Source: Candidatus Omnitrophota bacterium
GTDB lineage: Bacteria; Omnitrophota; Gorgyraeia; Duberdicusellales; 4484-171
Assembly: GCA_041652815.1 (NCBI GenBank)
Contig: JBAZGN010000005.1
Span: forward strand, 8,615-72,614
Direction: 5' to 3'
DNA length: 64,000 bases
Shown: positions 11,530-29,544 of the stretch, one piece after another
Position numbering within the stretch: the first letter of the stretch is position 1
Layout: each line of letters starts with the position of its first letter
Notes under the pieces: generated by a model
What the model was told of the DNA's origin: nothing
Database searches by the model: none
Seen by the model: only the letters and a program-made list of their open reading frames with translations
Position numbers and translations under genes: made by a program

Positions 11530-11763
11530 ATGGAACCGGATAAAATTGTAGATGAAATTTATAATTCTTTTTTAATCGGCAACGACGGAAAGGTTTATGC
11601 AAACACTATTGAATATATAGAAAAAATTATCATTGAAAAGGTACTTGAAAGAAGCTTCGGCAATCAATTCAGGGCAGCAAAGATTTTAGGGATTAATCGT
11701 AATACTTTACGTTCCAAAATAAAGAAATTGAATATAGACGCAAGTAGGTGGAAAGGTTATTGA
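11530..11763 (+). CDS. Standalone Fis-type helix-turn-helix DNA-binding protein
   Basis: 77 aa. C-terminal AAKILGINRNTLRSKIKKLNI matches the Fis/NtrC-C-terminal HTH. RBS taaggaggttcatta. Confidence 0.5.
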   Translation: MEPDKIVDEIYNSFLIGNDGKVYANTIEYIEKIIIEKVLERSFGNQFRAAKILGINRNTLRSKIKKLNIDASRWKGY

Positions 11764-11981
11764 TAGCTAATGAATAAAACTCTAAACCCTAAACTCGAAA
11801 CTCTAAACAAACTCGAAATCACAATGTTCCAAATCCTAAACGTTTCGAGTTTGGGATTTCGAGTTTGTAGTTTGTTTAGGATTTTCCGCCAGAGGCCCTC
11901 GGCTTCGCCGAGAGGCGAGCGGATCCGCCCACATATAAAAAATATATCGGTGGCGGAAGTGTTTAGAGTTTTAGGGTTTAA
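11764..11981. repeat. Compound palindromic repeat region containing copy 2 of the TTCCGCCAGAGGC...GGATCCGCCCACATAT...GTGGCGGAA core
   Basis: Terminal inverted repeats AAAACTCTAAACCCTAAA / TTTAGGGTTTAGAGTTTT-like. Internal AACTCGAAAC/GTTTCGAGTT reiterations. The core is near-identical to 7201-7250 with a 24-nt internal duplication. Both track ORFs here, 11757..12089(-) and 11770..11994(+), are spurious. Confidence 0.6.
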
Positions 11982-11983
11982 AT

Positions 11984-14900
11984 ATGAAATATAAGCATTT
12001 CCCAGGACAACAAGGTCTCTACTACCCGGAATATGAGCATGATTCTTGCGGGGTGGGGTTTGTTTGTAACATAAAAGGCCAGAAATCAAATGCTATCGTC
12101 CGGCAGGGAATTGAGGTTTTACGCCGGCTGTCGCACCGAGGAGCAGTAGGTTCGGACCCAAAAACCGGAGATGGCGCGGGAATCTTAATTCAGATCCCGC
12201 ACGAATTTTTTAAAAAGTCCGCTCAAGCAATAAAAATTAATTTACCGGAATTAGGTTTCTACGGCACCGGTTTGATATTTTTGCCGAAAGATATTAAAGA
12301 ACGTGAATTCTGTAAAAAAACATTTGAAAAAATTATAAAAGATGAAGGCCAAATTTTTTTAGGATGGCGTAGTGTGCCGATAGATAATTCGGATATAGGC
12401 AAAGGAGCCAAGGCCAGCGAGCCGGTTTTTGAACAAGTTTTTATTGAGAGAAACAAAGATGTAAGCGGGGAACTGGATTTTGAAAGGAAACTTTATGTAA
12501 TCAGAAAACAAGTGGAAAATATTATCCGTTCATCCGAATTACAGCAAAAGAAATCTTTCTATATTACTAATATTTCCACCCGCACATTTTCCTATAAGGG
12601 TTTGCTCATGCCTGGCCAGCTGGAGAACTTTTTTGTTGACCTTAAGGATGAAAGTATAGAAAGTTCACTATGTTTAGTGCATTCACGTTATAGTACTAAT
12701 ACTTTTCCTACCTGGGACTTAGCGCAGCCATTTAGATTCTTAGCTCACAACGGAGAAATAAATACTTTACGCGGGAATATAAACGGAGTACGGGCAAGAG
12801 AACGGTTAATTTCCAGCGAGATTTTTGGGGCAGATATAGAAAAGCTAAAACCAGTTATCGTTGAAGGAGGGAGCGATTCGGCTGCAATTGATAATCTATT
12901 TGAGCTGCTGGTTTTATCGGGCCGGCCCCTTGAGCATACAATGATGATGCTTATTCCTGCGGCTTGGGAACACGATAAATTTATGGATTGTGAGCTTAAA
13001 GATTTTTATAAATATCATGCTTGTTTTATGGAGCCTTGGGATGGGCCGGCGGCAATGGCTTTTACCGACGGAAAAAATATTGCTGCCGCTTTAGATAGAA
13101 ACGGACTTAGGCCAGCGCGTTATATTATAACTAAAAATGATTTTGTAGTGATGGCATCTGAGGTAGGCGTTTTGGATATTGCACCTAAAGATATTAAGAT
13201 TTCAGGCCGTCTTGAGCCGGGAAAATTATTTTTTATTGATACGCAAGCAGGCTGCATAGTAGACGATTCCCAGATAAAAAAAAGAGTATCCGGCAATTGC
13301 CCATATGGTAAATGGAATACCGAAAATATGGTTGATCTTGATAGCCTTGTAGGCGGCAGTACAGGCAATAAAAAACCCGCAGATATAATAGCTTGCCTTA
13401 AGGCTTTTGGTTATTCCCGGGAAGACCTGAAAATAGTTATTCGGCCTATGGCCGAAGAAGGGAAAGAGCCCGTAGGTTCAATGGGCAATGATACTCCGCA
13501 TGCTTTTTTGTCAAAGAAACCCCAGCTTCTTTATAGCTATTTTAAGCAATTGTTTGCGCAAGTAACAAATCCGGCGATAGATTCTATCAGAGAAAAGCTG
13601 GTGATGAGTTTAGAAAGTTTTATCGGCCCTGAGAAAAATATTTTAGAGGAAACTCCTAAGCATAGCCATAAACTTAAAGTAAGGAATCCGATATTAACAA
13701 ACGAAGAACTTATAAAAATTCGAGATATCAGCATAAATAATTTTAGAACCAAGACGATTTATACTTTTTTTGACGCAGTTAATCCTAAGGAAGGTTTTGT
13801 CCGCGCGCTGGAAAGGATTTGTTTTGAAGCGGAATATGCCATTGATAAAGGGTATTCTTTTATTATATTAAGTGACCGTGGAATTGATAAGGATAGAATT
13901 GCTTTGCCGGCACTTTTAGCAATGAGCGCAGTCCATCATTATCTGGTAAGAAAAACTATACGTTCGCAGGTTGCGATAATAGTTGAAAGCGCAGAGCCCA
14001 GAGAGGTACACCATTTTGCTTTGCTTTTTGGTTACGGCGCAGACTGCATAAACCCATATCTTGCCTATGAAACAATAGAATATCTTATCAGCGAAAAAGA
14101 GATTAATTTAGACCGTAAAAACGCATTGAAGAATTACAATAAAGCTTTAACAGACGGCATATTAAAAATATTGTCAAAAATGGGGATATCTACCTTAAGA
14201 AGCTATCGCGGAGCGCAAATATTTGAAGCTTTAGGTTTAGACGATGAGCTTATAGAGAAGTATTTTACCGGAACCGTATCGCGAATAGCCGGCGTTGGCC
14301 TTCCCGGGATAGCGCAGGAGACTATCGAAAGGCATAAAGAAGCTTTCGCCCAAAGAGGCGTAGTTAGCCCGTATTTAACCAGCGGTGGAATTTATCAATG
14401 GAAAAGAGATGGAGAATTTCATCTTTGGAATCCCGAAACTATCGCTGCCTTGCAAGATGCTACGCGCAATAACGATTATGACAAATATAAAGAATTTGCG
14501 CGGATGATAAATAATCAGTCAGATAATCCTGTGACCTTGAGAAGCTTGCTTAAGTTCAAAAAAGAAAAACCGATTCCTATTGATGAAGTTGAACCCGTTC
14601 AAAGTATTATGCGGCGTTTTACAACCGGCGCAATGAGTTTTGGTTCAATCAGTGCTTTAGCGCACGAAACAATTGCTATCGCCATGAACAGAATAGGCGG
14701 AAAATCTAACACCGGTGAAGGTGGCGAAGATCCGGACAGATTTACGGCCCTACCTAACGGCGACTCAAAAAGAAGCGCCGTAAAACAAGTTGCCTCCGGA
14801 AGATTCGGTGTCACTACAAACTATCTTGTTAATGCAGATGAAATACAAATAAAGATTGCTCAGGGGGCAAAGCCAGGCGAAGGAGGCCAATTACCGGGGC

Positions 14901-16513
14901 ATAAAGTAAGCCCGATAATCGCCCGAATCAGGTATACAACCCCCGGCGTTACTTTAATATCTCCGCCGCCGCATCATGATATATATTCTATTGAGGACCT
15001 TGCACAATTAATATTTGATTTAAAAAATGTTAATCCTCGCGCCCGCGTAAGCGTAAAGCTTGTATCAGAAGTAGGAGTAGGAACTGTTGCCGCAGGCGTT
15101 GCCAAAGGGCATGCGGATATGATTCTTATTTCCGGCGGAGACGGCGGCACCGGCGCATCTCCTCAGAGCTCAATAAGATATGCAGGGCTTCCGTGGGAGC
15201 TTGGCGTTAGCGAGACGCATCAAACACTCCTGCTGAATAATTTACGTTCAAGAGTGCGCATACAAACTGATGGGCAGATGCGAACCGGCCGCGATGTGGC
15301 AATAGCCGCTTTGTTAGGAGCGGAAGAATTTGGTTTTTGTTCGAGCGTGCTTGTTGTAAGCGGCTGCGTTATGCTTAGGCATTGCCAGCTTAATAATTGT
15401 TCAGTTGGCATAGCTACGCAAGATGAGGCTTTACAGAAACGCTTTGGAGGAAAACCTGAATATATAGTGAACTATTTTAATTTCATAACACAGGAACTAC
15501 GCGAAATTATGGCAAGTTTAGGCATAAGGACTATAAACGAAATGATTGGCCGCGCAGATCTTATTGAAGTAAATAAAGAGATTATTCCTTCCAAAGCGCG
15601 CGGAGTAAATTATTCCAAAATCCTTTATGTGCCGGAATTACCTCGAGATTATGCAAGATATTGTAAAGTAAAACAGGAAAGCGGGCTTGATTTTGTTTTA
15701 GACAAAGAACTTATAAAAATGTGTGGTGTTTTTAAAGAGAATGAGCCAATAAAAATTTCAGTTAAGATTAATAATACCAACAGAACTGCAGGTGCAATGC
15801 TTAGCGGAGAGTTAATCCGGCGCTATGGAGAAGCGGGGTTGCCCCATGATTCTATAGTTTGTAAATTTAAAGGCATTGCCGGCCAAAGTTTTGGCGCTTT
15901 TCTGGCGAAAGGAATTACTTTTGAATTAGAAGGTATGGCTAATGATTATGTTGGCAAAGGAATTTCCGGAGGAAAAATTATTATTTATCCAGATAAACAG
16001 ACAGGATATAAGGCCGAAGAAAATATTATTATTGGAAATACCGCGTTTTATGGTGCTATCGCTGGTGAAGCTTATATTGGAGGTGTTGCCGGCGAACGGT
16101 TTTGTATACGAAACTCAGGCCTTAAGGCAGTAGTTGAAGGCGTGGGGGATCATGGTTGCGAGTATATGACCGGCGGGTATGTCGCTATAATCGGTAAGAC
16201 CGGCCGTAATTTTGCCGCAGGTATGAGCGGCGGCATTGCGTATGTATATAATGCAGGAAAAGATTTTAATCAGAAATGTAATTTAGAAATGGTGGAGTTG
16301 GAAATTCTTTCCCAGAATGATGAAAAAGTACTTTACGATTTACTCTGTAACCATCATAAATACACTCAAAGCGCAATTGCTAAGAAAATTATTGAGCATT
16401 TTAAAAAAGAAATTAAACATTTTGTCAAAGTTATGCCAACAGAATATAAACGTATTTTAGCAGGGAAAAAAGCGATAAAGAAACCGGATTTGGTTGAGGT
16501 GTCAGATGGGTGA
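11984..16513 (+). CDS. gltB: Glutamate synthase large subunit
   Basis: 1509 aa. N-terminal amidotransferase domain with CGVGF, central domain, FMN domain (GEGGEDP, KQVASGRFGV), C-terminal GXGXG repeats. Confidence 0.95.
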   Translation: MKYKHFPGQQGLYYPEYEHDSCGVGFVCNIKGQKSNAIVRQGIEVLRRLSHRGAVGSDPKTGDGAGILIQIPHEFFKKSAQAIKINLPELGFYGTGLIFLPKDIKEREFCKKTFEKIIKDEGQIFLGWRSVPIDNSDIGKGAKASEPVFEQVFIERNKDVSGELDFERKLYVIRKQVENIIRSSELQQKKSFYITNISTRTFSYKGLLMPGQLENFFVDLKDESIESSLCLVHSRYSTNTFPTWDLAQPFRFLAHNGEINTLRGNINGVRARERLISSEIFGADIEKLKPVIVEGGSDSAAIDNLFELLVLSGRPLEHTMMMLIPAAWEHDKFMDCELKDFYKYHACFMEPWDGPAAMAFTDGKNIAAALDRNGLRPARYIITKNDFVVMASEVGVLDIAPKDIKISGRLEPGKLFFIDTQAGCIVDDSQIKKRVSGNCPYGKWNTENMVDLDSLVGGSTGNKKPADIIACLKAFGYSREDLKIVIRPMAEEGKEPVGSMGNDTPHAFLSKKPQLLYSYFKQLFAQVTNPAIDSIREKLVMSLESFIGPEKNILEETPKHSHKLKVRNPILTNEELIKIRDISINNFRTKTIYTFFDAVNPKEGFVRALERICFEAEYAIDKGYSFIILSDRGIDKDRIALPALLAMSAVHHYLVRKTIRSQVAIIVESAEPREVHHFALLFGYGADCINPYLAYETIEYLISEKEINLDRKNALKNYNKALTDGILKILSKMGISTLRSYRGAQIFEALGLDDELIEKYFTGTVSRIAGVGLPGIAQETIERHKEAFAQRGVVSPYLTSGGIYQWKRDGEFHLWNPETIAALQDATRNNDYDKYKEFARMINNQSDNPVTLRSLLKFKKEKPIPIDEVEPVQSIMRRFTTGAMSFGSISALAHETIAIAMNRIGGKSNTGEGGEDPDRFTALPNGDSKRSAVKQVASGRFGVTTNYLVNADEIQIKIAQGAKPGEGGQLPGHKVSPIIARIRYTTPGVTLISPPPHHDIYSIEDLAQLIFDLKNVNPRARVSVKLVSEVGVGTVAAGVAKGHADMILISGGDGGTGASPQSSIRYAGLPWELGVSETHQTLLLNNLRSRVRIQTDGQMRTGRDVAIAALLGAEEFGFCSSVLVVSGCVMLRHCQLNNCSVGIATQDEALQKRFGGKPEYIVNYFNFITQELREIMASLGIRTINEMIGRADLIEVNKEIIPSKARGVNYSKILYVPELPRDYARYCKVKQESGLDFVLDKELIKMCGVFKENEPIKISVKINNTNRTAGAMLSGELIRRYGEAGLPHDSIVCKFKGIAGQSFGAFLAKGITFELEGMANDYVGKGISGGKIIIYPDKQTGYKAEENIIIGNTAFYGAIAGEAYIGGVAGERFCIRNSGLKAVVEGVGDHGCEYMTGGYVAIIGKTGRNFAAGMSGGIAYVYNAGKDFNQKCNLEMVELEILSQNDEKVLYDLLCNHHKYTQSAIAKKIIEHFKKEIKHFVKVMPTEYKRILAGKKAIKKPDLVEVSDG

Positions 16514-16600
16514 GCGTTACACGTAACAAGTATCACGTAACACGTTTAAAAAAAGACGCGATACTTGTTACATGATACGTGTTACTTAATAAAGGAAAAG
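16514..16600. repeat. Palindromic GTAAC/CACGT-rich element (member of the GTATCACGTAAC-termini family) between gltB and gltD
   Basis: GTTACACGTAAC, GTAACAAGTATC...GATACTTGTTAC inverted pair, GTATCACGTAACACG. It shares terminal motifs with the elements at 23552-23662 and 50333-50461. Confidence 0.6.
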
Positions 16601-18064
16601 ATGGGTGATGTAAAAGGTTTTCTAAAAGTTAGGCGCCAAACAGCGAAATACAGGCCGGTTTGCGTGCGCGTAAAAGACTACCGTGAAGTGGCAATGCCGC
16701 GCTCTGATGAGGCTATGAAAGAGCAGGCATCGCGTTGTATGGACTGCGGAACTCCTTTTTGCCATTGGGGTTGCCCTCTGGGAAATTATATTCCCGAGTG
16801 GAATGACGCAGTTTTTCGCGGCCGATGGAAGAAAGCCTTTCAATTGCTTGAGGCAAGCAATAATTTTCCCGAATTTACCGGAAGGCTTTGCCCCGCGCTT
16901 TGTGAGTATGCTTGTATTTTGGGAATAAATGATGACCCGGTAACTATAAAAGAGAATGAATTGACGATTATTGAATATGCTTTTGATGCTGGTTTTATCC
17001 GGGCAAATCCGCCTAAAGTTCGTACCGGAAAAAAAATTGCTGTTATCGGTTCCGGCCCGTCCGGGCTTGCTTGCGCCAACCAGTTGAATAAAGCTGGGCA
17101 TAAGATAACGGTTTTTGAAAAGGATGACAAAATAGGAGGTATTTTACGCTACGGTATCCCGGATTTTAAACTTGAAAAGTGGCTCATTGACCGGCGGGTT
17201 AACCTGCTTGAGAAAGAGGGTATTGAATTTAAAACCAATGTGAATGCCGGCATAGGCTATAAAGCCTCAAAACTTAAAAAAGAATTTGATGCCATTGTGC
17301 TTACCGCTGGTTCCCGTGTTCCCCGTGACCTTAATATTGAAGGCCGAAAGCTCAACGGTATATATTTCGCTATGGATTATTTAATCCAGTCAAACAGAAG
17401 AGTTGCCAAAGAAAAAATACCCGTTAATAAGTTAATCGATGCCAAAGGAAAAAAAGTTGTTGTTATCGGCGGAGGAGATACCGGCGCTGATTGTGTCGGC
17501 ACGGCGAACCGGCAAGGCGCAAGCTGTGTGGTGCAAATTGAAATTATGCCAAAGCCTGAAGAATGCCGTACCAAAGAATACCCGTGGCCAAAATACCCGT
17601 TGATTTTAAGAACTTCTACTAGCCACGAAGAAGGAAGCGAGCGCCAGTGGAGCATTCTTACTAAAAAATTTATCGGTGAGAATGGTAAACTTGAGAAATT
17701 ATCTTGTGTCCGTGCCGAATTTATAAACGAACAACGAACAGCGAACGACAAACGGCAAGCTTGTCCGGTAATGCGCGAAATCCCTGGTTCTGAATTCGAG
17801 ATTAGCGCCGATATGGTCTTGCTGGCAATGGGTTTTGTGCATCCCGAACATTCAAAACTGCTTACAGATTTAGGCGTAGAACTGGATAAACGCGGCAATA
17901 TAAAAACAGATGCAAATTATATGACTTCCAATGAGAAAGTATTTTCTGCAGGAGACGCCAGAAGCGGCCAGTCATTAATTGTACGGGCTATTGCAGAAGG
18001 CAGGCAGGCTGCTTTCTGTGTTGATAAATATCTTATGGGCGAAAGTAGTTTGTCTATTATATAA
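16601..18064 (+). CDS. gltD: Glutamate synthase small subunit (NADPH)
   Basis: Fe-S cluster cysteines CMDCGTPFC and CPLGN; FAD/NAD Rossmann motifs GSGPSGLACA and VIGGGDTGADC. I moved the start to the ATG at 16601 (RBS aaaggaaaag). The track start lies inside the repeat. Confidence 0.9.
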   Translation: MGDVKGFLKVRRQTAKYRPVCVRVKDYREVAMPRSDEAMKEQASRCMDCGTPFCHWGCPLGNYIPEWNDAVFRGRWKKAFQLLEASNNFPEFTGRLCPALCEYACILGINDDPVTIKENELTIIEYAFDAGFIRANPPKVRTGKKIAVIGSGPSGLACANQLNKAGHKITVFEKDDKIGGILRYGIPDFKLEKWLIDRRVNLLEKEGIEFKTNVNAGIGYKASKLKKEFDAIVLTAGSRVPRDLNIEGRKLNGIYFAMDYLIQSNRRVAKEKIPVNKLIDAKGKKVVVIGGGDTGADCVGTANRQGASCVVQIEIMPKPEECRTKEYPWPKYPLILRTSTSHEEGSERQWSILTKKFIGENGKLEKLSCVRAEFINEQRTANDKRQACPVMREIPGSEFEISADMVLLAMGFVHPEHSKLLTDLGVELDKRGNIKTDANYMTSNEKVFSAGDARSGQSLIVRAIAEGRQAAFCVDKYLMGESSLSII

Positions 18065-18225
18065 GATTTGGTAACGGTTAAGGTAACCTATCATTATTAT
18101 TTTAGGTTACGCGCCTGCCGTAGGCAGGCAGGTTACCTAGGTTACACTAAATCACGAGTTTTTTGATGTAACCTTCGTAACCTACCCGTAACCTACGTAA
18201 CATATAGGCAGAAATAGCTGTTAAA
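18065..18225. repeat. GTAACC/GGTTAC heptamer array with central GC hairpin
   Basis: GGTAACGGTTAAGGTAACC; AGGTTAC-GCGCCTGCCGTAGGCAGGC-AGGTTAC; GTAACCTTC-GTAACCTACCC-GTAACCTAC-GTAAC at roughly 9-11 bp phasing, directly upstream of the 857-aa gene. Confidence 0.5.
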
Positions 18226-18233
18226 GGAGCAAA

Positions 18234-20807
18234 ATGATAAGTACTGGTATAAAAGGCCTAGATGGCGTAGTCACAGGTTTAAGAGCAGGAGATAATGTTG
18301 TCTGGCAGATAGATGACATAAATGATTATATTGATTTGGTGAAACCTTTTGTGCAAGAGGCTTTAAAGGAAGACAAGAAAGTTATATACATAAGATTTGC
18401 TTCACATAAAGAGCTGCTCAATCCTTCTAAAAACATAAAGCGATACGAACTTAATGCCTATGCGGGTTTTGAAACTTTTGCTGCCAAGGTAAACAGCATC
18501 ATTACCGAATCTGGTGAAGGTGCATATTATGTGTTTGATTGTTTATCTGAGCTTCTTTTAGCCTGGGCTACGGATCTTATGATCGGAAACTTTTTTATGG
18601 TTACCTGTCCGTATCTTTATGAACTTAAGACTGTCACGTATTTTTCTATATTACGTAATAACCATTCTTTTAAATCTATAGCCCGCATCCGCGAAACAAC
18701 ACAATTGCTTATTGATGTATATCGTTGCGAAGGGAATTTATATATACATCCTCTAAAGGTATGGAACAGGTATTCGCCGACGATGTTTATTCCCCATCAA
18801 AAAGAAGACGACAGGTTTATCCCGATCATTGACAGCGTCAATGCCGCCAAATTGTTTTCTTATATTCACGAAAAAGGCACCGAAAGCGTAAAAAGAAACC
18901 TTGATTATTGGGACCGCCTGTTCCTTGAGGCCCAGGATCTGCTTGAAAAATCTCCGGTAGCAGAAAAACTGAAAGGCACAATAAATAAACTTTCCAATAT
19001 TATGATTACCAAGGATAAAAAGATTCTATCCTTGGTAATGGATAATTTTTCGCTTCCTGAACTGATAGAAATAAAGTCAAGGTTAATAGGCACCGGTTTT
19101 GTCGGCGGAAAAACCGTCGGAATGCTTTTGGCGAGAAAAATTCTTTCCAAAAATTTTCCCAATTGGCAAAAAGTTTCCGAGCCCCATGATTCCTTTTATA
19201 TCGGTTCCGACATCTTTTATTCCTATATTGTGCAGAACCACTGGTGGAAACTGCGCATGCAGCAGAAAACAGAAGAGGGGTATTTTGAGATTGCAAAAGT
19301 TTTAAAAGAAAAAATGCTCTACGGCGTATTTGACGAGGAAGTAATGGAGCAATTTCAACAGATTATAGAATATTTCGGCTCTTCTCCTATAATTATACGT
19401 TCCAGTTCGCTTTTGGAGGATGGTTTCGGCAATGCTTTTGCCGGAAAATACGAAAGCATATTTTTAGCAAATCAAGGCAGCCCCGAACAAAGATATATTC
19501 AGTTCGCCGAAGCTGTAAAAAGAATTTACGCAAGCACTATGAACGAAGACGCCCTTACTTACCGCAAACAGCGCGGCTTGGATAAGTCTGATGAGCAAAT
19601 GGCGCTTTTAGTCCAGAGGGTTTCCGGCACGCACCATAAACAGTATTTTTTCCCGGATTTAGCCGGAGTGGGCGTATCCTACAATACCTATGTCTGGAAT
19701 GAAAATATGAGCCCCAAAGCCGGCATGCTTAGGCTGGTATTCGGGCTTGGCACAAGGGCAGTCAATCGCGTTGAGGGAGATTACCCCAGGATGGTGGCTC
19801 TGGATAACCCGTTACGCCGCCCATATTCGCAAAAGGATGATTTAAAAAGGTATTCCCAGCACGAAGTTGACCTTATCGATGTCCGAGAGAACCAGCTTAA
19901 AACTATTTCCCTAAAACAGCTTTTAAGCGAAAAATGTTATAAAGACATTAGCCGCATAGCAGTAAAAGATGATTCTATACCGATAGCAGATGAAACCGCG
20001 GAAGAAAATGAATTTTGGATTTTAACCCTGGATGGTTTATTTGATGGGGAGTTATTTGCCAATTCTTTTAAACAAATATTAGAGTCATTAGAGAAAGCTT
20101 ATGATTATCCGGTTGAAATAGAATTTACGGTAAACTTCACAAAGAATGACAAATTTAAAATTAATTTACTGCAATGCCGGCCACTGCAGACCCGCGGTTT
20201 AGGGCATAAGGTCAAAATGCCTGAGCATCTGGAAAAGCAGGATATCATTTTTGAATCGTCCGGGTATTTTCTTGGCGGAAATATTTCCCAGAGTATTTTA
20301 AGAATCATTTACATTGACCCGGAAAAATACAGCAAGCTGATTTTATCGGATAAGTATGAAATCGCTCAAATCGTAGGAAAGCTAAACACAAATATCGGCA
20401 ACAAAGATGAAACGCCTACGCTGCTTATTGGCCCGGGCAGATGGGGCACTTCTACGCCGTCTTTGGGCATACCCGTGAAATTCGCACAAATAAATAATGT
20501 TACAATACTGGCGGAACTTGCTTTTTCCGATGGCAACCTTAATCCGGAAGTTTCTTTCGGAACGCATTTTTTCCAGGACTTGGTGGAAACAAATATTTTT
20601 TATCTGGCGCTATTTCCCGAAAAAAAATATAATAAGTTTAAATGGTTCCTGCAGCAAAAAAATAGGTTTGAGGAACTTTTGCCGGCGTCTTCTAAATACA
20701 AAAATCTTATCGCGGTTTACGATATCGCGGATAACCATGTAAAGATTATGTCCGATGTCATATCACAAAAAGTGATATGCTTTTCTGGCAGTAAGAATTC
20801 TAAATAG
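18234..20807 (+). CDS. Two-domain protein: N-terminal RecA/KaiC-like fold with degenerate P-loop, plus PEP-utilizing-enzyme (PPDK/PEP synthase N-terminal ATP-grasp)-like domain
   Basis: 857 aa. N-terminus [23 protein letters not shown] follows the RecA/KaiC GxxGLDxxxxGGLxxG pattern but lacks GKT. The middle [24 protein letters not shown]...ALLVQRV matches the PPDK_N nucleotide-binding signature (RSSxxxED...FAGQ). The C-terminal ~300 aa is unassigned. RBS ttaaaggagcaaaATG. Confidence 0.8.
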
Positions 20808-20827: not shown

Positions 20828-22447
20828 ATGCCAAAATATATCTTCATAACCGGCGGGATTATTTCGAGTTTAGGTAAGGGAATAGCTTCTGCTTCTATCG
20901 GTAAGATTTTAGAAACTCGCGGCGTCAAAGTTACCATTATGAAGCTTGACCCTTATATTAATGTTGATCCTGGGACGATGAACCCTTATCAGCACGGAGA
21001 AGTTTACGTTACCGAAGATGGCGCCGAGACCGATTTAGACCTCGGCCATTACGAGCGCTTTACCAGTATTAATACTTCTAAATGCAATAATATCACTACC
21101 GGTAAGATTTATAACCAGGTTATTTCCCGGGAAAGAAAAGGAGATTATTTAGGAAAAACTATCCAGGTTATCCCGCACATTACCGATGCCATAAAAGGGG
21201 AAATCAAAAAATGCGCAGATGCGTCAAAAGCCGACATTATAATCGTTGAAATCGGCGGCACTGTTGGCGATATCGAAAGCTTGCCCTTTTTGGAAGCTGC
21301 GCGCCAATTCCGGCTGGATATGGGTTACGAAAACACCCTTTATATCCATTTAACGCTAGTCCCTTACATTAAAGCTGCCGGAGAGTTGAAAACCAAACCT
21401 ACCCAGCACAGCGTTGGCACTTTACGTGAGATAGGAATTATTCCGGATGTTTTGATTTGCCGCGCGGAAAAGCCTTTGTCAGACAGCGTTAAGGAAAAAA
21501 TTTCTTTATTTTGCAATGTCAAGAAAGAAGCTGTTATCGAATCCGTAGATATGGAGTCAATTTATCAGATACCGTTACTTTTCAAAAAACAAATTCTAGA
21601 CGAAATAATTCTTAGCCATTTTAAATTAATCTGTAAGTTTTCCGACCTGAAAGATTGGGAAGTAAATGTAGTTCAGCGAGCGCTTAATCCTAAACATAAG
21701 GTGACGGTTGCCGTCGTTGGAAAATATATTGAACTGCAGGATACCTATAAATCCATATATGAGGCAATAATTCACGCCGGTATTTTTAATAATGCTAAAG
21801 TGGAAGTTAAAAAAATTGATTCCGAAACTTTGGAAAAAGGAAACCCCAAAGAATTGCTGAAAGATGTTTGCGGAATACTTGTTCCCGGAGGTTTTGGCTA
21901 CCGCGGTATTGAAGGAAAGATTGCGGCGATTGAATTCGCAAGGTATAATAACGTTCCATTTCTAGGGCTTTGTTTGGGGATGCAATGCGCGGTCATAGAG
22001 TTTGCCAGAAATGCCTGCAATTTAAAAAGCGCTAATTCCACAGAATTTAAAAAAACAAAATATCCCGTTATAAGCCTGCTTAAAGAGCAAAGAGGGGTTA
22101 AAGATTTAGGCGGCACTATGCGCCTGGGCGCTTATCCCTGTAAAATCAAGAAAAACACCCTCGCCTTTAGCGCTTACGGTAAAGGATTGATTTATGAGCG
22201 CCATCGGCATAGGTATGAGTTTAATAATAAATATAAAAAATTGCTGGAAGAAAAAGGGATGGTCTTTTCCGGCATTTATCCTCAGAGAAATTTAGTAGAG
22301 ATAGTTGAGGTAAAAAAGCATCCTTATTTTATCGCGGTGCAGTTTCATCCGGAATTTAAATCCAAACCGGACAAAGCGCATCCGTTGTTTAGGGATTTTA
22401 TTAAAGCAGCATTAAAAAAGACAGCGGATATTGAAACTATCCGCTAA
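20828..22447 (+). CDS. pyrG: CTP synthase
   Basis: 539 aa. [19 protein letters not shown]; GATase domain GLCLGMQ...HPEF. Confidence 0.95.
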
Positions 22448-22465: not shown

Positions 22466-23551
22466 ATGCAAGCATTACTTGTTTTAGAGGACGGCACAAC
22501 ATTTCGGGGTAAGTCCTTTGGCGCAACCGGCATACGTTTCGGAGAAGTGGTTTTTAACACTAGTATGTCCGGATATCAGGAGATAATTACTGACCCTTCC
22601 TATAAAGGGCAGATTGTTGTAATGACTTACCCTTTAATTGGCAATTACGGCACAAATGACGAAGACGTTGAATCGGCAAAGCCGTATCTGGGAGGTTTTG
22701 TGGTTAAGGAATACAGTAAACTCTTCAGCAACTGGCAGGCCAAAGAATCTCTGGGGGATTATTTTAAAAGAAATAATATTTTAGGCATTGAGGGAATTGA
22801 TACCCGTGCCCTTACTTTGCATATCCGCCACTCCGGCGCTATGAAAGCAGTGCTGGCAACCGGCAATGTAAATGAAAAAGAGTTAATCCAAAAAGCGAAA
22901 AATTCACCGGGATTAGTCGGCATAGATTTAGTTAAGGAAGTTACCTGCGATAAAAAGTATCTTTGGAAAAAAGCCAAGGACAGTAAATATAAGGTAGTCG
23001 TGCTTGATTGCGGAACAAAATATAATATTTTAAGAAACCTTGTAAAAAACAAATGTGAGGTTATAGTTGTGCCGGCAAATACCCAAGCGGATGAAATTTT
23101 AGGTTTAAAGCCGGATGGCGTATTGCTTTCTAACGGCCCCGGAGACCCGGTAGCAGTCAAATATGTGATAGAGGCTACCAGAAAGCTAATCGGGAAAGTA
23201 CCTCTATTTGGCATTTGTTTGGGCCAGCAGATTTTAGGCCTGGCGTTCGGCGGGAAAACTTACAAACTTAAATTCGGCCATCACGGAGCTAACCAGCCGG
23301 TTAAAGATTTACGAACAGGAAGAGTTTTAATTACCGTGCAGAATCACGGGTTTTCCGTCGATATAAAATCCCTGAATAAAAAAGATATTGAAATAACTCA
23401 TATAAATTTAAATGACCAGACGCTGGAAGGCATCCGGCACAAAAAATTACCGATATTTTCCGTGCAATTTCATCCTGAAGCAAGCGCCGGACCGCATGAC
23501 GCTCAATATCTATTTGGAGAATTTGTTCAGATGATGAATAAATATAAGTAA
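22466..23551 (+). CDS. carA: Carbamoyl-phosphate synthase small subunit
   Basis: 361 aa. LxLEDGTxFxGxSFG N-terminus; GATase triad GICLGQQ...QFHPE. Confidence 0.95.
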   Translation: MQALLVLEDGTTFRGKSFGATGIRFGEVVFNTSMSGYQEIITDPSYKGQIVVMTYPLIGNYGTNDEDVESAKPYLGGFVVKEYSKLFSNWQAKESLGDYFKRNNILGIEGIDTRALTLHIRHSGAMKAVLATGNVNEKELIQKAKNSPGLVGIDLVKEVTCDKKYLWKKAKDSKYKVVVLDCGTKYNILRNLVKNKCEVIVVPANTQADEILGLKPDGVLLSNGPGDPVAVKYVIEATRKLIGKVPLFGICLGQQILGLAFGGKTYKLKFGHHGANQPVKDLRTGRVLITVQNHGFSVDIKSLNKKDIEITHINLNDQTLEGIRHKKLPIFSVQFHPEASAGPHDAQYLFGEFVQMMNKYK

Positions 23552-23671: not shown

Positions 23672-26600
23672 ATGCCTAAAAGAAAAGATATTAAAAAAAT
23701 CCTGATCATTGGATCGGGGCCGATTGTCATCGGCCAAGCCTGTGAATTTGATTATTCCGGAACCCAAGCCTGTAAAGCTTTAAAAGAAGAAGGTTTTAAG
23801 GTTATTCTGATTAATTCTAATCCCGCCACGATTATGACTGACCCGCAAACTGCAGATGTTACTTATATTGAGCCGATAACTGTGGAAATGGTTGAAAAAA
23901 TTATTGCCAAAGAAAGGCCGGATGCTTTACTTCCTACTTTAGGCGGCCAAACCGGGCTTAACACCGCTATGAAATTATGCGAAATGGGCGTGCTGGATAA
24001 ATATAAAGTAAAAATGATTGGCGCGGATTATAAAGCCATTAAAAAAGCCGAAGACCGCAAATATTTTAAAAACACTATCATAAAAATCGGCCTGGATTTA
24101 CCAAAAAGCGCGCTGGCCTACAGCATAAAAGAAGCCAGAGCTGCGCTTAAAAAAATCGGTTTACCGGTGATTGTCCGGCCAAGCTTTACTTTGGGCGGTA
24201 CCGGCGGAGGAATTGCTTATACGCTAAAAGAATTTGAAAAAATAGCCGATAACGGCTTAAGAAACAGTATGATACACGAAATTCTCATTGAAGAATCCGT
24301 AGTCGGCTGGAAAGAATATGAATTGGAAGTAATGCGCGACCTTAAAGATAACGTGGTTATCGTCTGTTCCATAGAAAATTTTGACCCAATGGGCGTGCAT
24401 ACCGGAGATTCCATAACTGTTGCGCCGGCACAAACCTTAACCGACAAGGAATATCAGGCAATGCGCGATGCCGCAATCAAGATTATCAGAGAAATCGGCG
24501 TTGAAACCGGCGGCTCCAATATTCAATTTGCCGTCCATCCCAAAACCGGCAGGATGGTGGTTATTGAAATGAACCCGCGGGTTTCCCGCAGTTCCACTTT
24601 AGCCAGTAAAGCCACAGGTTTTCCCATTGCAAAAATTGCCGCAAAACTTGCCGTAGGCTACAGCCTGGATGAAATCCAAAACGATATTACCAAAAAAACC
24701 CCGGCTTCCTTTGAGCCGGCAATAGATTATTGTGTGGTAAAAATTCCGCGCTTTGCTTTTGAAAAATTCCCCGAAGCCGGCGACATCCTCGGCGTTTCTA
24801 TGAAGTCAGTCGGTGAAACTATGGCTATCGGCCGCACTTTTAAAGAAGCCTTGCAGAAAGGTTTACGCGGCTTGGAAATCGGCCATAGCGGTTTGGATAA
24901 TAAGTCCAATTACCGCAATATTTCCGATGAAAAAATCAGGCATCGTTTGAAAGAGCCTAATGCTTCACGCATATTTTACCTAAAATATGCCCTGCAAAAA
25001 GGCTTTAGCTTGCAAGAAATATACAAGCTTACTTATATTGACCCTTGGTTTATCCATAATATTAAAGAAATTGTGGATTTCGAAAAGGAAATTCAAAAAG
25101 CCGGTAAAAATATTTCTAAAAAACTACTTGAAGAGGCCAAGCAATATGGTTTTAGTGACAAACAAATAGGGGATTTAATCGGTTTAGAGGAATCAGCCGT
25201 CCGGAAAAAAAGAAAACAGCAAGGCATTGCAGCAACTTTTAGGTTAGTCGATACCTGCGCCGGAGAATTTGAAGCTTATACCCCTTATTATTATTCAACT
25301 TACGAAAGTAAAGACGAGGCGCGCAAATCCACCAAAAAGAAAATTATGATTTTAGGCGGCGGCCCCAATCGTATCGGACAGGGAATAGAATTTGATTATT
25401 GCTGTTGTCATGCTTCTTTTGCCCTGAAAGAAATGGGGTTTGAAACGATTATGGTTAATTCCAACCCCGAAACAGTTTCTACCGATTATGATACCTCGGA
25501 TAAATTATATTTTGAGCCGCTGACTTTTGAAGATGTTATGAATATCATTGATAAGGAAAAGCCATATGGCGTAATCGTGCAATTTGGCGGCCAAACCCCT
25601 CTTAATCTGGCAAGAAAGCTGGAGGATGCCGGCGCGCCCGTTATCGGAACAACCGTTGATTCAATTGACATTGCCGAAGACCGCGATAGATTTGCTAAGG
25701 TGCTGAATAAATTAAACATCAAACAACCGCCCAACGGTTCAGCCTATTCCAAAGAGGAAGCCGTAAAAATTGCCAAAAAAATCGGTTACCCGGTTTTAGT
25801 ACGGCCTTCTTATGTTTTAGGCGGAAGAGCGATGAATATTGTTTATGATGAAAACTCTTTGGAAAAGTTTATCAAGGAAGCGCAAAAAGTTTCGCAGGAA
25901 CATCCGGTTTTAATCGATAAATTTTTGGAAGACGCAGTTGAGGTGGATGTGGACGCGATTTCCGACACTGAAACGACAATTATCGGCGGCGTAATGGAGC
26001 ATATTGAAGAAGCCGGTATTCATTCCGGAGATTCTGCCTGTGTGCTTCCGCCACATACCTTAAACGATGAAATCATTTCCGTGATTAAAAAATATACCTG
26101 CGATATCGCTAAAGAGTTAAAAGTAAAAGGGTTATTCAACCTGCAATGCGCGGTAAAAAAAGATGTGGTTTATATGCTGGAAGTTAATCCCCGTGCTTCA
26201 CGGACAGTGCCTTTTGTCAGCAAAGCTACCGGTGTACCATTAGCTAAAATTGCCAGCCAGGTTATGGCGGGTAAAAAACTGGCTGATTTTAAACTTAACG
26301 GCAAAAAAAATCTTTCTCATGTTGCCGTGAAAGAGGCGGTTTTGCCTTTTTCTAAATTTTCCGGCGTGGACATTATTCTTGGCCCGGAGATGAAATCAAC
26401 CGGCGAAGTTATGGGTATTGATACCTCTTTCGGAAAAGCGTTTTTTAAAGCCGAGGCTGCCGCCGGTCAAACCCTTCCTTTATCGGGAAAAGTATTTTTA
26501 AGCGTTAAAAACGATGACAAACGCAATATTGTCTTTATCGCCAAGAAGCTTTTTGATATGAATTTCCAAATTATTGCCACCAACGGCACATGGAAGGTTC

Positions 26601-26887
26601 TTGCCTCCAACAACATCAAAGCTAAAAGAGTAGAGAAAATTGCCGAAGGTTCAAGCCGCCTTCTGGATTTAATCAAAGGAGAAAAAATAAAACTTATCAT
26701 CAACACCCCTTCCGGAAAAAAAGGCCAATTTGATATGAAAACTATGCGCAGTCTAGCTGTCCGCTATGGTATACCCTGCATTACCACCATTTCCGGTGCT
26801 CAAGCCGCAGTCAACGGAATAGAGGCAACGTTGAAAGAGCAGCTTGGAGTGAAGGCGTTGCAGAAGTATTTTGGAACCAACAAATAA
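23672..26887 (+). CDS. carB: Carbamoyl-phosphate synthase large subunit
   Basis: 1071 aa. Duplicated ATP-grasp halves ([21 protein letters not shown] / [21 protein letters not shown]), MGS-like C-terminal domain. Confidence 0.95.
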
Positions 26888-26924: not shown

Positions 26925-27055
26925 TTAATCTAAATTCCACCGCCGCGGTGGGCTTTAGGTTTCTATCGAGCAGCTTACATTTTATTTGCTTACATTGAAT
27001 CCCCGTATTAAAATACTTTTAATCTAAATCCCACCTACGCGGTGGGTTATGGTTT
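26925..27055 (+). repeat. Pair of 37-nt direct repeats, each with a CCACC..GGTGG hairpin (26925-26962 and 27019-27055)
   Basis: TTAATCTAAATTCCACCGCCGCGGTGGGCTTTAGGTTT versus TTAATCTAAATCCCACCTACGCGGTGGGTTATGGTTT. CTTACATT x2 lies between them. They are upstream of phoB. Confidence 0.55.
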
Positions 27056-27095
27056 AATAATAGTTTTCAGTAAAAATTTTACTTGAGGAGAGAGA

Positions 27096-27788
27096 ATGAA
27101 AGAAACAATATTAATTGTCGAAGACGAGAAAGATATAGTCAAAATGTTGGGCTATAATCTGGAAAAAGAAGGGTTTAAGACGCTGTCGGTTTATGAGGGA
27201 GAAGACGCTTTGGATACGGCCGTTAGCAAACACCCGGACCTTATAATTTTGGATTTAATGCTTCCGGGCATGGATGGATTAGAAGTATGCAAAACGCTTA
27301 AAGCTGATTCTAAAACCAGCTCCATACCTATTATTATGCTTACGGCAAAAAGCCAGGATTCCGATAAAATCGTAGGGCTTGAGTTAGGGGCAGATGATTA
27401 TATGACCAAACCTTTTAGCCCCAGAGAGCTTATTGCCCGCATAAAAGCAGTGTTGCGCCGCGTGAAAGAAAAGGATAAATTGCCGGAGGTGTTAAAAATC
27501 GGCGAGTTGATGATAGATTTTTCAAAGATAGCAGTGGCCGTTAAAGATAAACCTGTAGAGCTTACATCAAAAGAGTTCGAGCTTCTAAAGACATTGGTAA
27601 AAGTAAAAGGAAGAGTCCTGTCGCGTGATTATCTTCTTGATAATATATGGGGCTTTGATAATGCTATGGAAATCCGAACCCGCACTGTGGATGTGCACAT
27701 TAGAACATTGCGTAAAAAACTAAAAAGCGAATCTAAGCGGATTCTTACCGTGAAAAATTACGGATATAGATTTAATTATGAAGATTAG
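27096..27788 (+). CDS. phoB: OmpR/PhoB-family response regulator
   Basis: Receiver domain (DDE...D54-like LDLMLPGMDG, K in TAK) plus winged-helix C-terminus (RVLSRDYLLDNIWG...VDVHIRTLRKKL). Confidence 0.85.
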   Translation: MKETILIVEDEKDIVKMLGYNLEKEGFKTLSVYEGEDALDTAVSKHPDLIILDLMLPGMDGLEVCKTLKADSKTSSIPIIMLTAKSQDSDKIVGLELGADDYMTKPFSPRELIARIKAVLRRVKEKDKLPEVLKIGELMIDFSKIAVAVKDKPVELTSKEFELLKTLVKVKGRVLSRDYLLDNIWGFDNAMEIRTRTVDVHIRTLRKKLKSESKRILTVKNYGYRFNYED

Positions 27789-29544
27789 AAGCTTTCGGTT
27801 GAAACTGATTCTTTCATATGTCTTTGTAATATTGGTATCCTTTGGGTTTGTCGGAATCTTTTTGGATAAAAATTTAGAAAAAAATTCCCTCCGTAATATA
27901 GAAACTTCTCTTATCAATCAAGCAAAATTAATCGAAAATCAGATTTTTCCGGAAAGTATCAGAAAGGAAGATGCTCCCTATTTGGAAAAATTAGCCAGGG
28001 TATCATCCTTAAAGACAAAATGCCGTATCACTATCATTGATACCCGCGGTAAGGTTTTAGCGGATTCGGAGAAATCACAGGAAGATATGGAAAATCATCT
28101 TAACCGTCCGGAGGTGCAAGCTGCTTTAAAAGGCGGCATCGGCAGCGATACACGTTATTCTTCCACTCTTAAAATAGATATGCTTTATGTCGCCTTGCCG
28201 CTCAAAGACAAAAACACTACTATCGGAGTATTAAGATTGGCCCTTACTTTAGAGGGCGTACAGAAGACATTATTGGCGATTAGAAAAACAGTCCTTCTGG
28301 GGTTGCTTTTTGCTTTGGGTTTTGCTTTTGTCTTAGGCTCTGTGTTGGCAAGCCGGGCTACCAGGCCGATTAACAAGATGATTCAGGTTTCCCGTAAGTT
28401 TTCAGAAGGCGATTTTAGCCGCAGGATAATCCAGTCTTCCCAGGATGAAATAGGGGAATTGGCAGTGACTTTGAATAAGATGGCCCAAGACATAGAAAAT
28501 AAGATTAAAGAGATTGAAAATCAAAGCCAAAAACTTGCTGCAATTTTTAACAGCATGATTGAGGGGGTTATTGTTATAGATAAATCCGGGCGCATAATTT
28601 CCATGAATCCAACGATTGAAAAAATATTCGGCGTTTCTAAAGGTGATGTCGAAGGCGCGGTTTTCCTGGAAGCGATACGCAATAATGATATTGCAGAGGT
28701 TATTGATGCGGTTTTAAAAAAGGGAAATTCGTTATCTGTAGAAATAACGCTTATTTATCCTATACGTAAAATCTTCGAGGTCAGCGCAGTGCCTATTTTT
28801 GATAGTGGCGCTATTGCCGGATGTTTGGTGGCCATACATGACATAACCGAAATTCGAAAGCTTGAGACAGTCCGCAAAGATTTCGTAGCCAATGTCTCCC
28901 ATGAATTAAAAACGCCGCTTACCTCTATAAAAGGTTTTGTGGAAACACTTCTTGAGGGCGCGTTGGATGACAAAGAGAATAACCGTAACTTTTTAAAGAT
29001 TATCCAGGAGCACGCCGAACGCCTTAATAGTTTGGTTGAGGATTTGCTTTCTCTTTCGCATCTTGAATCGAAAGAGGTAGCGCTCGATAAGAAAAATTTT
29101 AATTTGCGGCAACAGCTTGAAGGGATTATTTCAGGTTTTAAATCTCAATTAAAAAAGAAAAATATTGAAATAAAGAATGAGTTGCCTTCCGGCATTTCAG
29201 TGAGTGCCGATAGAGGCAGGATAGAGCAGGTATTTACCAATCTAATCGATAATGCGACAAAATTTAATAAAGAAAATGGCGCTATCCGGGTATATGCAGA
29301 AGAATTAAACGGAAAAATAAAAGTTTTTGTCGAAGATTCGGGGATAGGTATTCCCGAAAAAGATATTCCCCGCATATTCGAACGTTTCTACCGCGTAGAC
29401 AAAGCGCGCTCGCGCGAACTCGGAGGAACCGGCCTTGGGCTTTCTATCGTCAAACACATCGTTGAACTGCACGGTGGTATGGTTGGCGTAGAAAGTATTG
29501 AAGGTTTTGGTTCAAAATTTTGGTTCATACTGCCCAGAGCATAA
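27778..29544 (+). CDS. phoR: PhoR-like sensor histidine kinase (2 TM, HAMP, PAS, HisKA, HATPase)
   Basis: 588 aa. H-box SHELKTPLTSI; N/G boxes NLIDNATKF, DSGIGI, GGTGLGLSIV. Overlaps phoB by 11 nt. Confidence 0.85.
   Translation: MKIRSFRLKLILSYVFVILVSFGFVGIFLDKNLEKNSLRNIETSLINQAKLIENQIFPESIRKEDAPYLEKLARVSSLKTKCRITIIDTRGKVLADSEKSQEDMENHLNRPEVQAALKGGIGSDTRYSSTLKIDMLYVALPLKDKNTTIGVLRLALTLEGVQKTLLAIRKTVLLGLLFALGFAFVLGSVLASRATRPINKMIQVSRKFSEGDFSRRIIQSSQDEIGELAVTLNKMAQDIENKIKEIENQSQKLAAIFNSMIEGVIVIDKSGRIISMNPTIEKIFGVSKGDVEGAVFLEAIRNNDIAEVIDAVLKKGNSLSVEITLIYPIRKIFEVSAVPIFDSGAIAGCLVAIHDITEIRKLETVRKDFVANVSHELKTPLTSIKGFVETLLEGALDDKENNRNFLKIIQEHAERLNSLVEDLLSLSHLESKEVALDKKNFNLRQQLEGIISGFKSQLKKKNIEIKNELPSGISVSADRGRIEQVFTNLIDNATKFNKENGAIRVYAEELNGKIKVFVEDSGIGIPEKDIPRIFERFYRVDKARSRELGGTGLGLSIVKHIVELHGGMVGVESIEGFGSKFWFILPRA

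Follow-up and report, generated by a model that had tools for sequence, protein, structure and literature searches.

The 64,000-nucleotide stretch of DNA analysed here (the window; contig JBAZGN010000005.1 of a Candidatus Omnitrophota bacterium) encodes, at 18234..20807 on the forward strand, an 857-residue protein that belongs to a large uncharacterised three-domain branch of the dikinase superfamily of phosphoenolpyruvate (PEP) synthase, PPDK and rifampin phosphotransferase (RPH). An N-terminal domain with the predicted fold of KaiC, lacking the P-loop, is followed by an ATP-grasp domain whose ATP site looks intact and by a conserved, probably swivel-like C-terminal domain with an invariant histidine. 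Because the gene adjoins genes of glutamate and ammonium assimilation in many phyla, the protein probably has an as yet unrecognised part in nitrogen metabolism. The open reading frame (ORF) starts with ATG, the coordinates include the stop codon, and a 100% identical protein (P0001) is present in a public collection. The initial annotation, made from the sequence alone, had placed the ORF between gltD and pyrG-carA, and Pfam confirmed gltB, gltD, pyrG, carA and carB as its neighbours; the two motifs it quoted are present at residues 5-28 and 389-408.

Domain architecture of the protein

Pfam finds a single domain in the whole protein, PF01326 (PPDK_N), which matches residues 289-667 with E=1.1e-49 and covers model positions 3-325 of 328, in agreement with the central PPDK/PEP-synthase nucleotide-binding domain proposed initially. 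In 47 diverse homologues the motifs GGK293, R389-S-S-S..E395-D396, AGK405, Q461-R462, E630 and Q647-C-R649-P are invariant. A profile built from these homologues aligns to the PEP synthases 8a8e and 2ols and to HpeI (9goj) over RSS..ED..FAGxxE and (D/E)IE(W/F)...Q-x-R-P, and the alignments to 8a8e and 2ols additionally cover the vQ(K/R)M stretch. In PPDK and PEP synthase these elements bind the nucleotide and Mg, and because they are invariant in the family the ATP site looks intact as far as conserved residues can tell. In Foldseek comparisons the nearest solved ATP-grasp structures are those of RPH (5hv3, E=1e-13) and HpeI (9goj, E=5.5e-10); the alignments to RPH span about 380-410 columns, most likely the ATP-grasp domain. 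The invariant residues also bear on the idea that the whole protein is a pseudoenzyme, a scaffold without catalytic activity that would only bridge glutamate synthase (GOGAT), glutamate dehydrogenase and other enzymes. Such a role would fit the pseudo-ATPase character of the N-terminal domain, and high surface conservation would suit many protein contacts, but the expected ATP and Mg residues of the ATP-grasp are all invariant across phyla, unlike in a dead enzyme, and we consider a scaffold highly improbable.

Source annotations name the protein phosphoenolpyruvate synthase, and its best NCBIfam matches are models of PEP synthases and RPH. However, the scores are far below the cut-offs and the matches cover only part of the ATP-grasp: of the PEP-synthase models, NF004881 gives 64 bits against a cut-off of 883, NF005057 45 against 598 and TIGR01418 42 against 740; of the RPH models, NF041857 gives 27 against 999 and NF000283 18 against 1700; and the short-PPDK model NF004531 gives 19 against 456. 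A Pfam search of the whole protein found no PEP/pyruvate TIM barrel (PF02896), and the chain stops 190 residues past the ATP-grasp. A rifampin-binding domain and a canonical His domain are missing as well, and neither family has an N-terminal domain of the pseudo-KaiC kind. Membership in either family was rejected on domain content and scores, and the protein has no room for the 400-residue middle domain of the rifampin phosphotransferases. An identity as a true PEP synthase (pyruvate, water dikinase) or as an RPH-type resistance enzyme is thus next to inconceivable, in line with the initial view that it is no PEP synthase, and the thousands of database records that name the family phosphoenolpyruvate synthase are very probably wrong. 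In comparison with PpsA and PPDK, the family shares the PPDK_N ATP-grasp with PEP-synthase-type nucleotide motifs and a tethered downstream domain whose His the model places at the start of a helix, but it has no PEP/pyruvate TIM barrel, no GGxTSH-type motif and no His domain that is recognisable by sequence, and it carries the extra pseudo-KaiC domain.

The N-terminal domain was assigned from a full-length AlphaFold model, for which the alignment held 36 homologues (mean pLDDT 77.8, pTM 0.74). In a Foldseek search against the PDB, residues 1-200 match KaiC (7s65_B, E=1.1e-9) and FlaH (4yds, E=3.9e-9, TM 0.67 normalised on FlaH), and the matches to KaiC and FlaH have a probability of 1.0. The predicted structure thereby confirms, at fold level only, that the domain belongs to the KaiC/FlaH branch of RecA-like ATPases. 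Apart from the fold of residues 1-200, it shares with KaiC and FlaH the N-terminal GxxGLDxxxxG lead-in and a Walker-B-like hhhhD, the invariant FDCLS with D102. It differs from them in lacking Walker A and profile-level similarity and in being fused to an ATP-grasp. No Pfam family covers residues 1-285 (a weak MEDS match at E=0.2 is all that Pfam reports), a profile of the domain found only spurious RPA32 matches among the PDB sequences (E=0.01), and hhalign gave no match to an approximate sequence of KaiC CI. A PAXNEB match (E=0.004) in one tandem homologue is insignificant for the identity of the domain. The KaiC/RecA assignment made initially thus stands on predicted structure and is not reproduced by sequence or profile methods.

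The proposed loss of the P-loop was borne out: the Walker A pattern [GA]xxxxGK[ST] occurs nowhere in the query protein, so no intact motif had been overlooked, and nowhere in the N-terminal domain of 82 homologues. Only two residues separate beta1 (21-26, NVVWQI) from alpha1 (29-45) in the model, and the Walker A position holds the nearly invariant G19-D20-N21-V-V-W..D27. Further invariant polar residues are R54, H58, E80, D114, T155-T156-Q157, H172, K175, R179 and H188. Because polar residues are conserved in this way, the sequences suggest that the domain is a working binding site and not a decayed relic.

For the C-terminal domain the initial annotation had left the last approximately 300 residues unassigned. 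The tail is shorter, about 190 residues (668-857), and forms a structured, highly conserved domain with the signature stretches GPGRWGT(T/S)TPxLGVPV and PExSFGTH778FFQDLVExxIFY. Three alignments (A1, A2 and A3), with about 200 sequences between them, all show His778 as invariant. The domain was also modelled on its own from 121 sequences (pLDDT 85.5, pTM 0.85), and this model places His778 (domain residue 124) at the N-terminus of a helix formed by domain residues 123-132, between two beta-strands. The catalytic His of PPDK likewise sits at a helix N-terminus. The PPDK phosphoryl-carrier domain is the best structural match of the model, and maize PPDK, rifampin phosphotransferase, two enzyme I structures and the PEP-utiliser-like C-terminal domain of Bacillus pyruvate kinase are all within the top 60 of 48,164 chains. 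The modelled fold is therefore likely of the swivel type, and a role as phosphohistidine carrier is plausible but unproven. Of the initial statement that neither a swivel nor a PEP-binding domain is present, the part concerning the TIM barrel and a recognisable Pfam swivel family holds, but a conserved and probably swivel-like domain with an invariant His had been missed.

Distribution and gene neighbourhood of the family

A scan of one genome per species found the family in at least 598 loci, of which the best 80 were used for identity, phyla and neighbourhood. The homologues in these 80 loci are full-length, are 44-75% identical to the query and come from Omnitrophota, Planctomycetota, Syntrophia and other Desulfobacterota, Spirochaetota, Bacillota, Actinomycetota, purple sulfur bacteria, Margulisiibacteriota, Elusimicrobia and a Methanoregula. 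Cultured carriers such as Anaerobacillus sp. MEB173, Ectothiorhodospira magna and a Desulfuromonas are known. Homologues from Omnitrophota reach 73-79% identity, full-length homologues overall span 44-79%, and across phyla the identity is 45-60% over about 850 residues. Profiles of the N- and C-terminal domains matched 889 cluster representatives at 50% identity and 5,586 clusters at 90% identity, respectively; among the full-length proteins in the best 150 of the 889 representatives, the N-terminal domain was found in no other architecture. NCBIfam has no model for the family, and a full-text literature search returned nothing relevant on it.

In Geobacter-like bacteria the protein also occurs in a tandem form of 1460-1500 residues, in which an ATP-grasp and a C-terminal domain precede a complete set of N-terminal, ATP-grasp and C-terminal domains. 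Examples are the gene of Geobacter sp. OR-1 (locus L002, 10001-14419) and the proteins P0002 and P0015, which are 47-48% identical to the query. The C-terminal domain always lies downstream of an ATP-grasp, also in the N-terminal half of these fusions, and the layout of the fusions implies that the ATP-grasp and the C-terminal domain form a unit.

To describe the gene context, ORFs were called in 82 loci and in the window and clustered by BLASTP, and recurrent clusters were named from the window genes and from Pfam; counts refer to the 72 loci where two or more neighbours lie within three genes. A nitrogen-assimilation gene lies within three genes of the family member in 50 of these loci (about 70%) and is directly adjacent in 43. 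The commonest partner is gdhA (25 loci), which is absent from the window, followed by gltB (15), gltD (13), amtB/glnK (8), nrpR (7) and glnA (5), while glnN and a gltB-like amidotransferase were also seen. Adjacent nitrogen-assimilation genes are co-directional in 34 of 48 cases, many with gaps below 100 bp. This context spans Omnitrophota, Planctomycetota, Desulfobacterota, Bacillota, Spirochaetota, Actinomycetota and a Methanoregula. Since nitrogen-assimilation genes account for far less than 1% of a genome, the association is far beyond chance. Conservation of the genomic context, named initially as a way to examine the proposal of a role in nitrogen and pyrimidine flux, thus supports its nitrogen half. 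The pyrimidine half is not general: pyrG, carA/B or purF are nearby in 12 of the 72 loci, mostly in Omnitrophota, where the order is amtB-glnK-glnA-GATase-gltBD-X-pyrG-carAB-purSQL-purF (X, the gene studied here; GATase, glutamine amidotransferase), a long run of glutamine-using enzymes.

A gene for an NrpR-type repressor (HTH_12 and NRD1_2) was observed next to gdhA and the family member in several bacterial loci, from Syntrophia, Margulisiibacteriota and others (L011, L019-L021, L027, L029, L032 and L045). NrpR is best known from methanogens.

Possible mechanisms and relation to known systems

In view of the above, a catalytic cycle with three steps can be considered. ATP would bind to the ATP-grasp domain, as its conserved motifs and fold indicate. 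The phosphoryl group could then move to the invariant His778 of the linker-tethered, probably swivel-type C-terminal domain, after which this domain would swing to the pseudo-KaiC domain. The former nucleotide pocket of the latter, where the P-loop is lost and polar residues are kept, may act as acceptor or sensor site. In this genome the gene would be expressed together with the gltBD-pyrG-carAB block. The reading that we tentatively prefer, although we stop short of calling it probable, is a regulatory one, in which the protein, as a histidine autokinase driven by ATP, would read or set the nitrogen/2-oxoglutarate state and have glutamate-forming enzymes as its targets. A regulator is preferred to one fixed pathway step or a small-molecule kinase because the partner (gdhA, gltBD, amtB-glnK, glnA or nrpR) varies by lineage while the protein stays conserved. 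The initial annotation had suggested a regulatory kinase or a nucleotidyl-transferase; nothing points to the latter.

Several observations weigh against this regulatory reading, on the side of the carrier domain as well as on that of nitrogen. A Foldseek search of the C-terminal domain model against the PDB gave nothing below E=0.03, which speaks against a specific link to swivel domains. PF00391 matched neither the tail nor 47 homologous tails at E values up to 10, the only match of the domain profile among PDB sequences was a chance GPGRW in a gp120 peptide, and hhalign comparisons with the carrier domains of E. coli enzyme I and C. symbiosum PPDK, whose query sequences had been verified against the PDB, gave probabilities below 1%. 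The signature T/SxxGGxxxH that surrounds the catalytic His of swivel domains (PMC12167813) is replaced in the family by P-E-x-S-x-G-x-H-F-F-x-D. Because all sequence-level comparisons were negative, the relation of the C-terminal domain to phosphohistidine domains is one of fold alone. With respect to nitrogen, 22 of the 72 loci have no such context, and the tandem forms stand alone without it, with neighbours such as an alpha-amylase family gene and PGI, HSP20, or SulP/Ppx. The NrpR operator GGAA-N6-TTCC was found upstream of the gene once in 82 loci, which is the background frequency. Gene neighbourhood cannot separate a regulator from an enzyme, and no phosphoryl acceptor was pinned down. 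The alpha-amylase family and PGI neighbours in Geobacter OR-1 hinted at a carbohydrate link, which was dropped, as it does not recur in other tandem loci or other long neighbours.

The deviating motif around His778 leads to another explanation of the C-terminal domain. H778, D782 and E785 are spaced i, i+4 and i+7 on one face of the helix and are all invariant, with E761 and E772 alongside. Together these residues could bind a metal or serve catalysis in a new domain that is no phosphoryl carrier, in which case the ATP-grasp would act on a substrate directly or sense a nucleotide. The missing canonical swivel motif, the missing sequence-level tie to PF00391 and the low pLDDT of the conserved loops of the domain in the full-length model would agree with this. 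On the other hand, the domain sits on a variable linker and always follows the ATP-grasp, and to our knowledge every characterised PPDK_N-type ATP-grasp acts via a phosphohistidine carrier. A new metal or catalytic domain of this kind seems improbable.

A further option is a small-molecule dikinase, which would transfer a phosphoryl group from ATP via His-P to an acceptor, giving AMP and Pi. The pseudo-KaiC domain would bind the acceptor, a nitrogen metabolite such as L-glutamine, L-glutamate, 2-oxoglutarate or ammonia/carbamate. Of the non-PEP superfamily members that have been characterised, most phosphorylate small molecules, as RPH and HpeHI do via a swivel His (PMC12167813) and as Cj1418 of Campylobacter jejuni does. 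The latter was once mis-annotated as PEP synthase/PPDK and is an L-glutamine kinase that phosphorylates the amide nitrogen (PMC10971088). The operons consist almost wholly of glutamine- or glutamate-using enzymes, and the identity across phyla given above is very high for 857 residues and typical of enzymes. However, no known pathway of central nitrogen assimilation requires such a product, the change of partner gene between lineages is a better fit to a network regulator, and no similarity was found to the substrate domains of RPH or HpeH. On balance we regard a small-molecule dikinase as rather unlikely. The family resembles RPH and the two-component dikinases HpeHI and phenylphosphate synthase in that the ATP-grasp structures of RPH and HpeI are the nearest to its own, and RPH also in having the ATP-grasp first and the His domain last (PMC12167813). 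In contrast, the substrate-binding domain of RPH and HpeH is missing, the third domain is N-terminal and RecA-like, T/SxxGGxxxH is absent, and the context is nitrogen assimilation instead of antibiotic resistance or aromatic catabolism. Cj1418, which we liken to the family by description only, belongs to the same superfamily and has a nitrogen metabolite as substrate, but it acts in capsule biosynthesis. Its architecture is not known to include a KaiC-like domain.

For the preferred regulatory reading, a functional precedent exists in VadK (Rv1127c) of M. tuberculosis. This is a truncated PPDK, consisting of an ATP-binding and a His domain, that uses ATP and Mg2+ to phosphorylate itself on a His and, by contacting enzymes of the methylcitrate cycle, tunes that pathway (PMC13400623). 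Like the present family it is PPDK-derived and has no PEP/pyruvate domain. It differs in having two domains, in keeping the canonical PPDK His domain, in lacking a KaiC-like domain and in its target, the methylcitrate cycle; the short-PPDK model is the above NF004531, whose cut-off the query does not reach. Enzyme I-Ntr (PtsP) of the E. coli nitrogen PTS has an N-terminal GAF domain that senses glutamine and 2-oxoglutarate and governs the autophosphorylation of a swivel His. A sensor domain that controls a swivel His is the same logic as proposed here. However, PtsP uses PEP instead of ATP, has a canonical PEP-utiliser domain, a TIM barrel and a GAF sensor, and apart from a possible swivel fold no homology to it was found. 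In the most far-reaching reading, the family could be a widespread and so far unrecognised nitrogen-status transducer, present mostly in anaerobic bacteria and in some archaea. A KaiC-like sensor without a P-loop would gate the ATP-grasp and load a non-canonical phosphohistidine carrier, which would covalently control glutamate dehydrogenase or GOGAT or make a phosphorylated nitrogen metabolite as a signal. In this full form the proposal is unlikely.

The locus in the window and wider meaning

The coordinates of the gene's parts and surroundings are collected in the table. Co-transcription with pyrG is likely because pyrG begins 20 bp past the stop codon. A scan for promoters and terminators was no more informative than one of shuffled sequence.

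Features of the gene and its surroundings in the window (positions in window coordinates; aa, amino acid residues)
Feature	Position	Strand	Basis and remarks
gltB	11984-16513	+	Upstream co-directional neighbour; Pfam
gltD	16565-18064	+	Upstream co-directional neighbour; Pfam; gltB-gltD order the same in Omnitrophota relatives
Array of 8-9 (C/T/G)GTAACCT(A) units in both orientations, with palindrome GCCTGCC-GTA-GGCAGGC	18070..18205	.	Spacer between gltD and the gene; this genome only
Shine-Dalgarno AAGGAG	18224..18229	+	4 nt ahead of the ATG; read from the sequence
N-terminal pseudo-KaiC (RecA-like) domain, aa 1-200	18234..18833	+	Foldseek, secondary structure of the model, invariant columns
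Helical linker, aa 201-285, five helices, between pseudo-KaiC and ATP-grasp	18834..19088	+	DSSP on the model; conserved D224, W226, F230
PPDK_N-type ATP-grasp, aa 289-667	19098..20234	+	Pfam PF01326, Foldseek, profile alignment, invariant columns; codons checked
Variable unstructured linker, aa 651-670, about 20 aa	20184..20243	+	No secondary structure between strands 640-650 and 671-676 (model); columns variable in alignment A2
C-terminal domain, aa 668-857, no Pfam family	20235..20804	+	Probable swivelling beta/beta/alpha-type fold; motifs GPGRWGT(T/S)TP, PExSFGTH778FFQDLVE
His778 codon, candidate phospho-acceptor	20565..20567	+	Translation; helix N-terminus in the model
pyrG	20828-22447	+	Downstream; Pfam
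carA	22466-23551	+	Downstream; Pfam
carB	23672-26887	+	Downstream; Pfam

Farther upstream the window holds glnK-amtB-glnK, a porin gene, glnA and a class-I amidotransferase gene, so that a long co-directional run of nearly all ammonium- or glutamine-handling genes (5462-26887) reads glnK-amtB-glnK, porin, glnA, GATase, gltB, gltD, the gene, pyrG, carA and carB. In a relative (locus L001, 1-22586) the same kind of run extends into purS, purQ, purL and purF, and the arrangement resembles a super-operon of glutamine amidotransferases. A small ORF (11530-11770) between the GATase gene and gltB matches in position a 78-residue HTH_8 (Fis-type) protein of L001 (3412-3648) and may be a local regulator. 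After carB, an OmpR-type response regulator and a Cache-HAMP-PAS histidine kinase of 588 residues are encoded at 27096-29544; a regulator/kinase pair of very similar architecture (225 and 589 residues) occurs at the Geobacter OR-1 locus (L002, 3879-6322), maybe by coincidence.

The initial annotation described dense repeat arrays on both sides of the gene and took them as a functional hint. Directly upstream such an array is indeed present, but the 20-bp gap downstream contains no repeat, and the other arrays flank the gltB-carB block. The upstream array is the densest GTAACC/GGTTAC cluster in the window, with arms of up to 25 nt that can pair. The spacer that holds it measures 169 bp here versus 11-14 bp in related Omnitrophota. 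Because the relatives have only this short gap, the array says nothing about the function of the protein; it is a lineage-specific insertion outside the conserved biology of the gene. GGTTACC also occurs upstream of glnK/amtB (5219 and 5297) and of glnA (9239).

The intergenic arrays of this block each have a private repeat unit. Upstream of gltB, at 11777-11885, AAACTC(T/G)AAAC / AAACCCTAAAC units are followed by inverted copies (25-nt arms, 88% complementary), and another inverted copy lies right ahead of the gltB start (11958-11988). This array may be a leader or attenuator structure or a set of regulator sites. The spacer between carB and the response-regulator gene contains, at 26925-27057, two 37-nt units (TTAATCTAAAT-CCCACC..GGTGGG-hairpin) that are 94 bp apart, each a GC-rich hairpin with AATCTAAAT / TTTAGGTT on its flanks.

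Outside a few model organisms, little is understood of how glutamate dehydrogenase and GOGAT are controlled. The family described here is widespread, uncharacterised and without a curated model, which makes it a good target for experiments. If the protein is an ATP-driven histidine phosphotransfer enzyme, it would represent a new dikinase architecture, composed of a pseudo-KaiC domain, an ATP-grasp and a non-canonical swivel domain, and it would be a concrete candidate for a regulator or enzyme of central nitrogen assimilation. Should the nitrogen-status transducer exist as outlined, it would stand beside control of the PII/GlnD/GlnE type.

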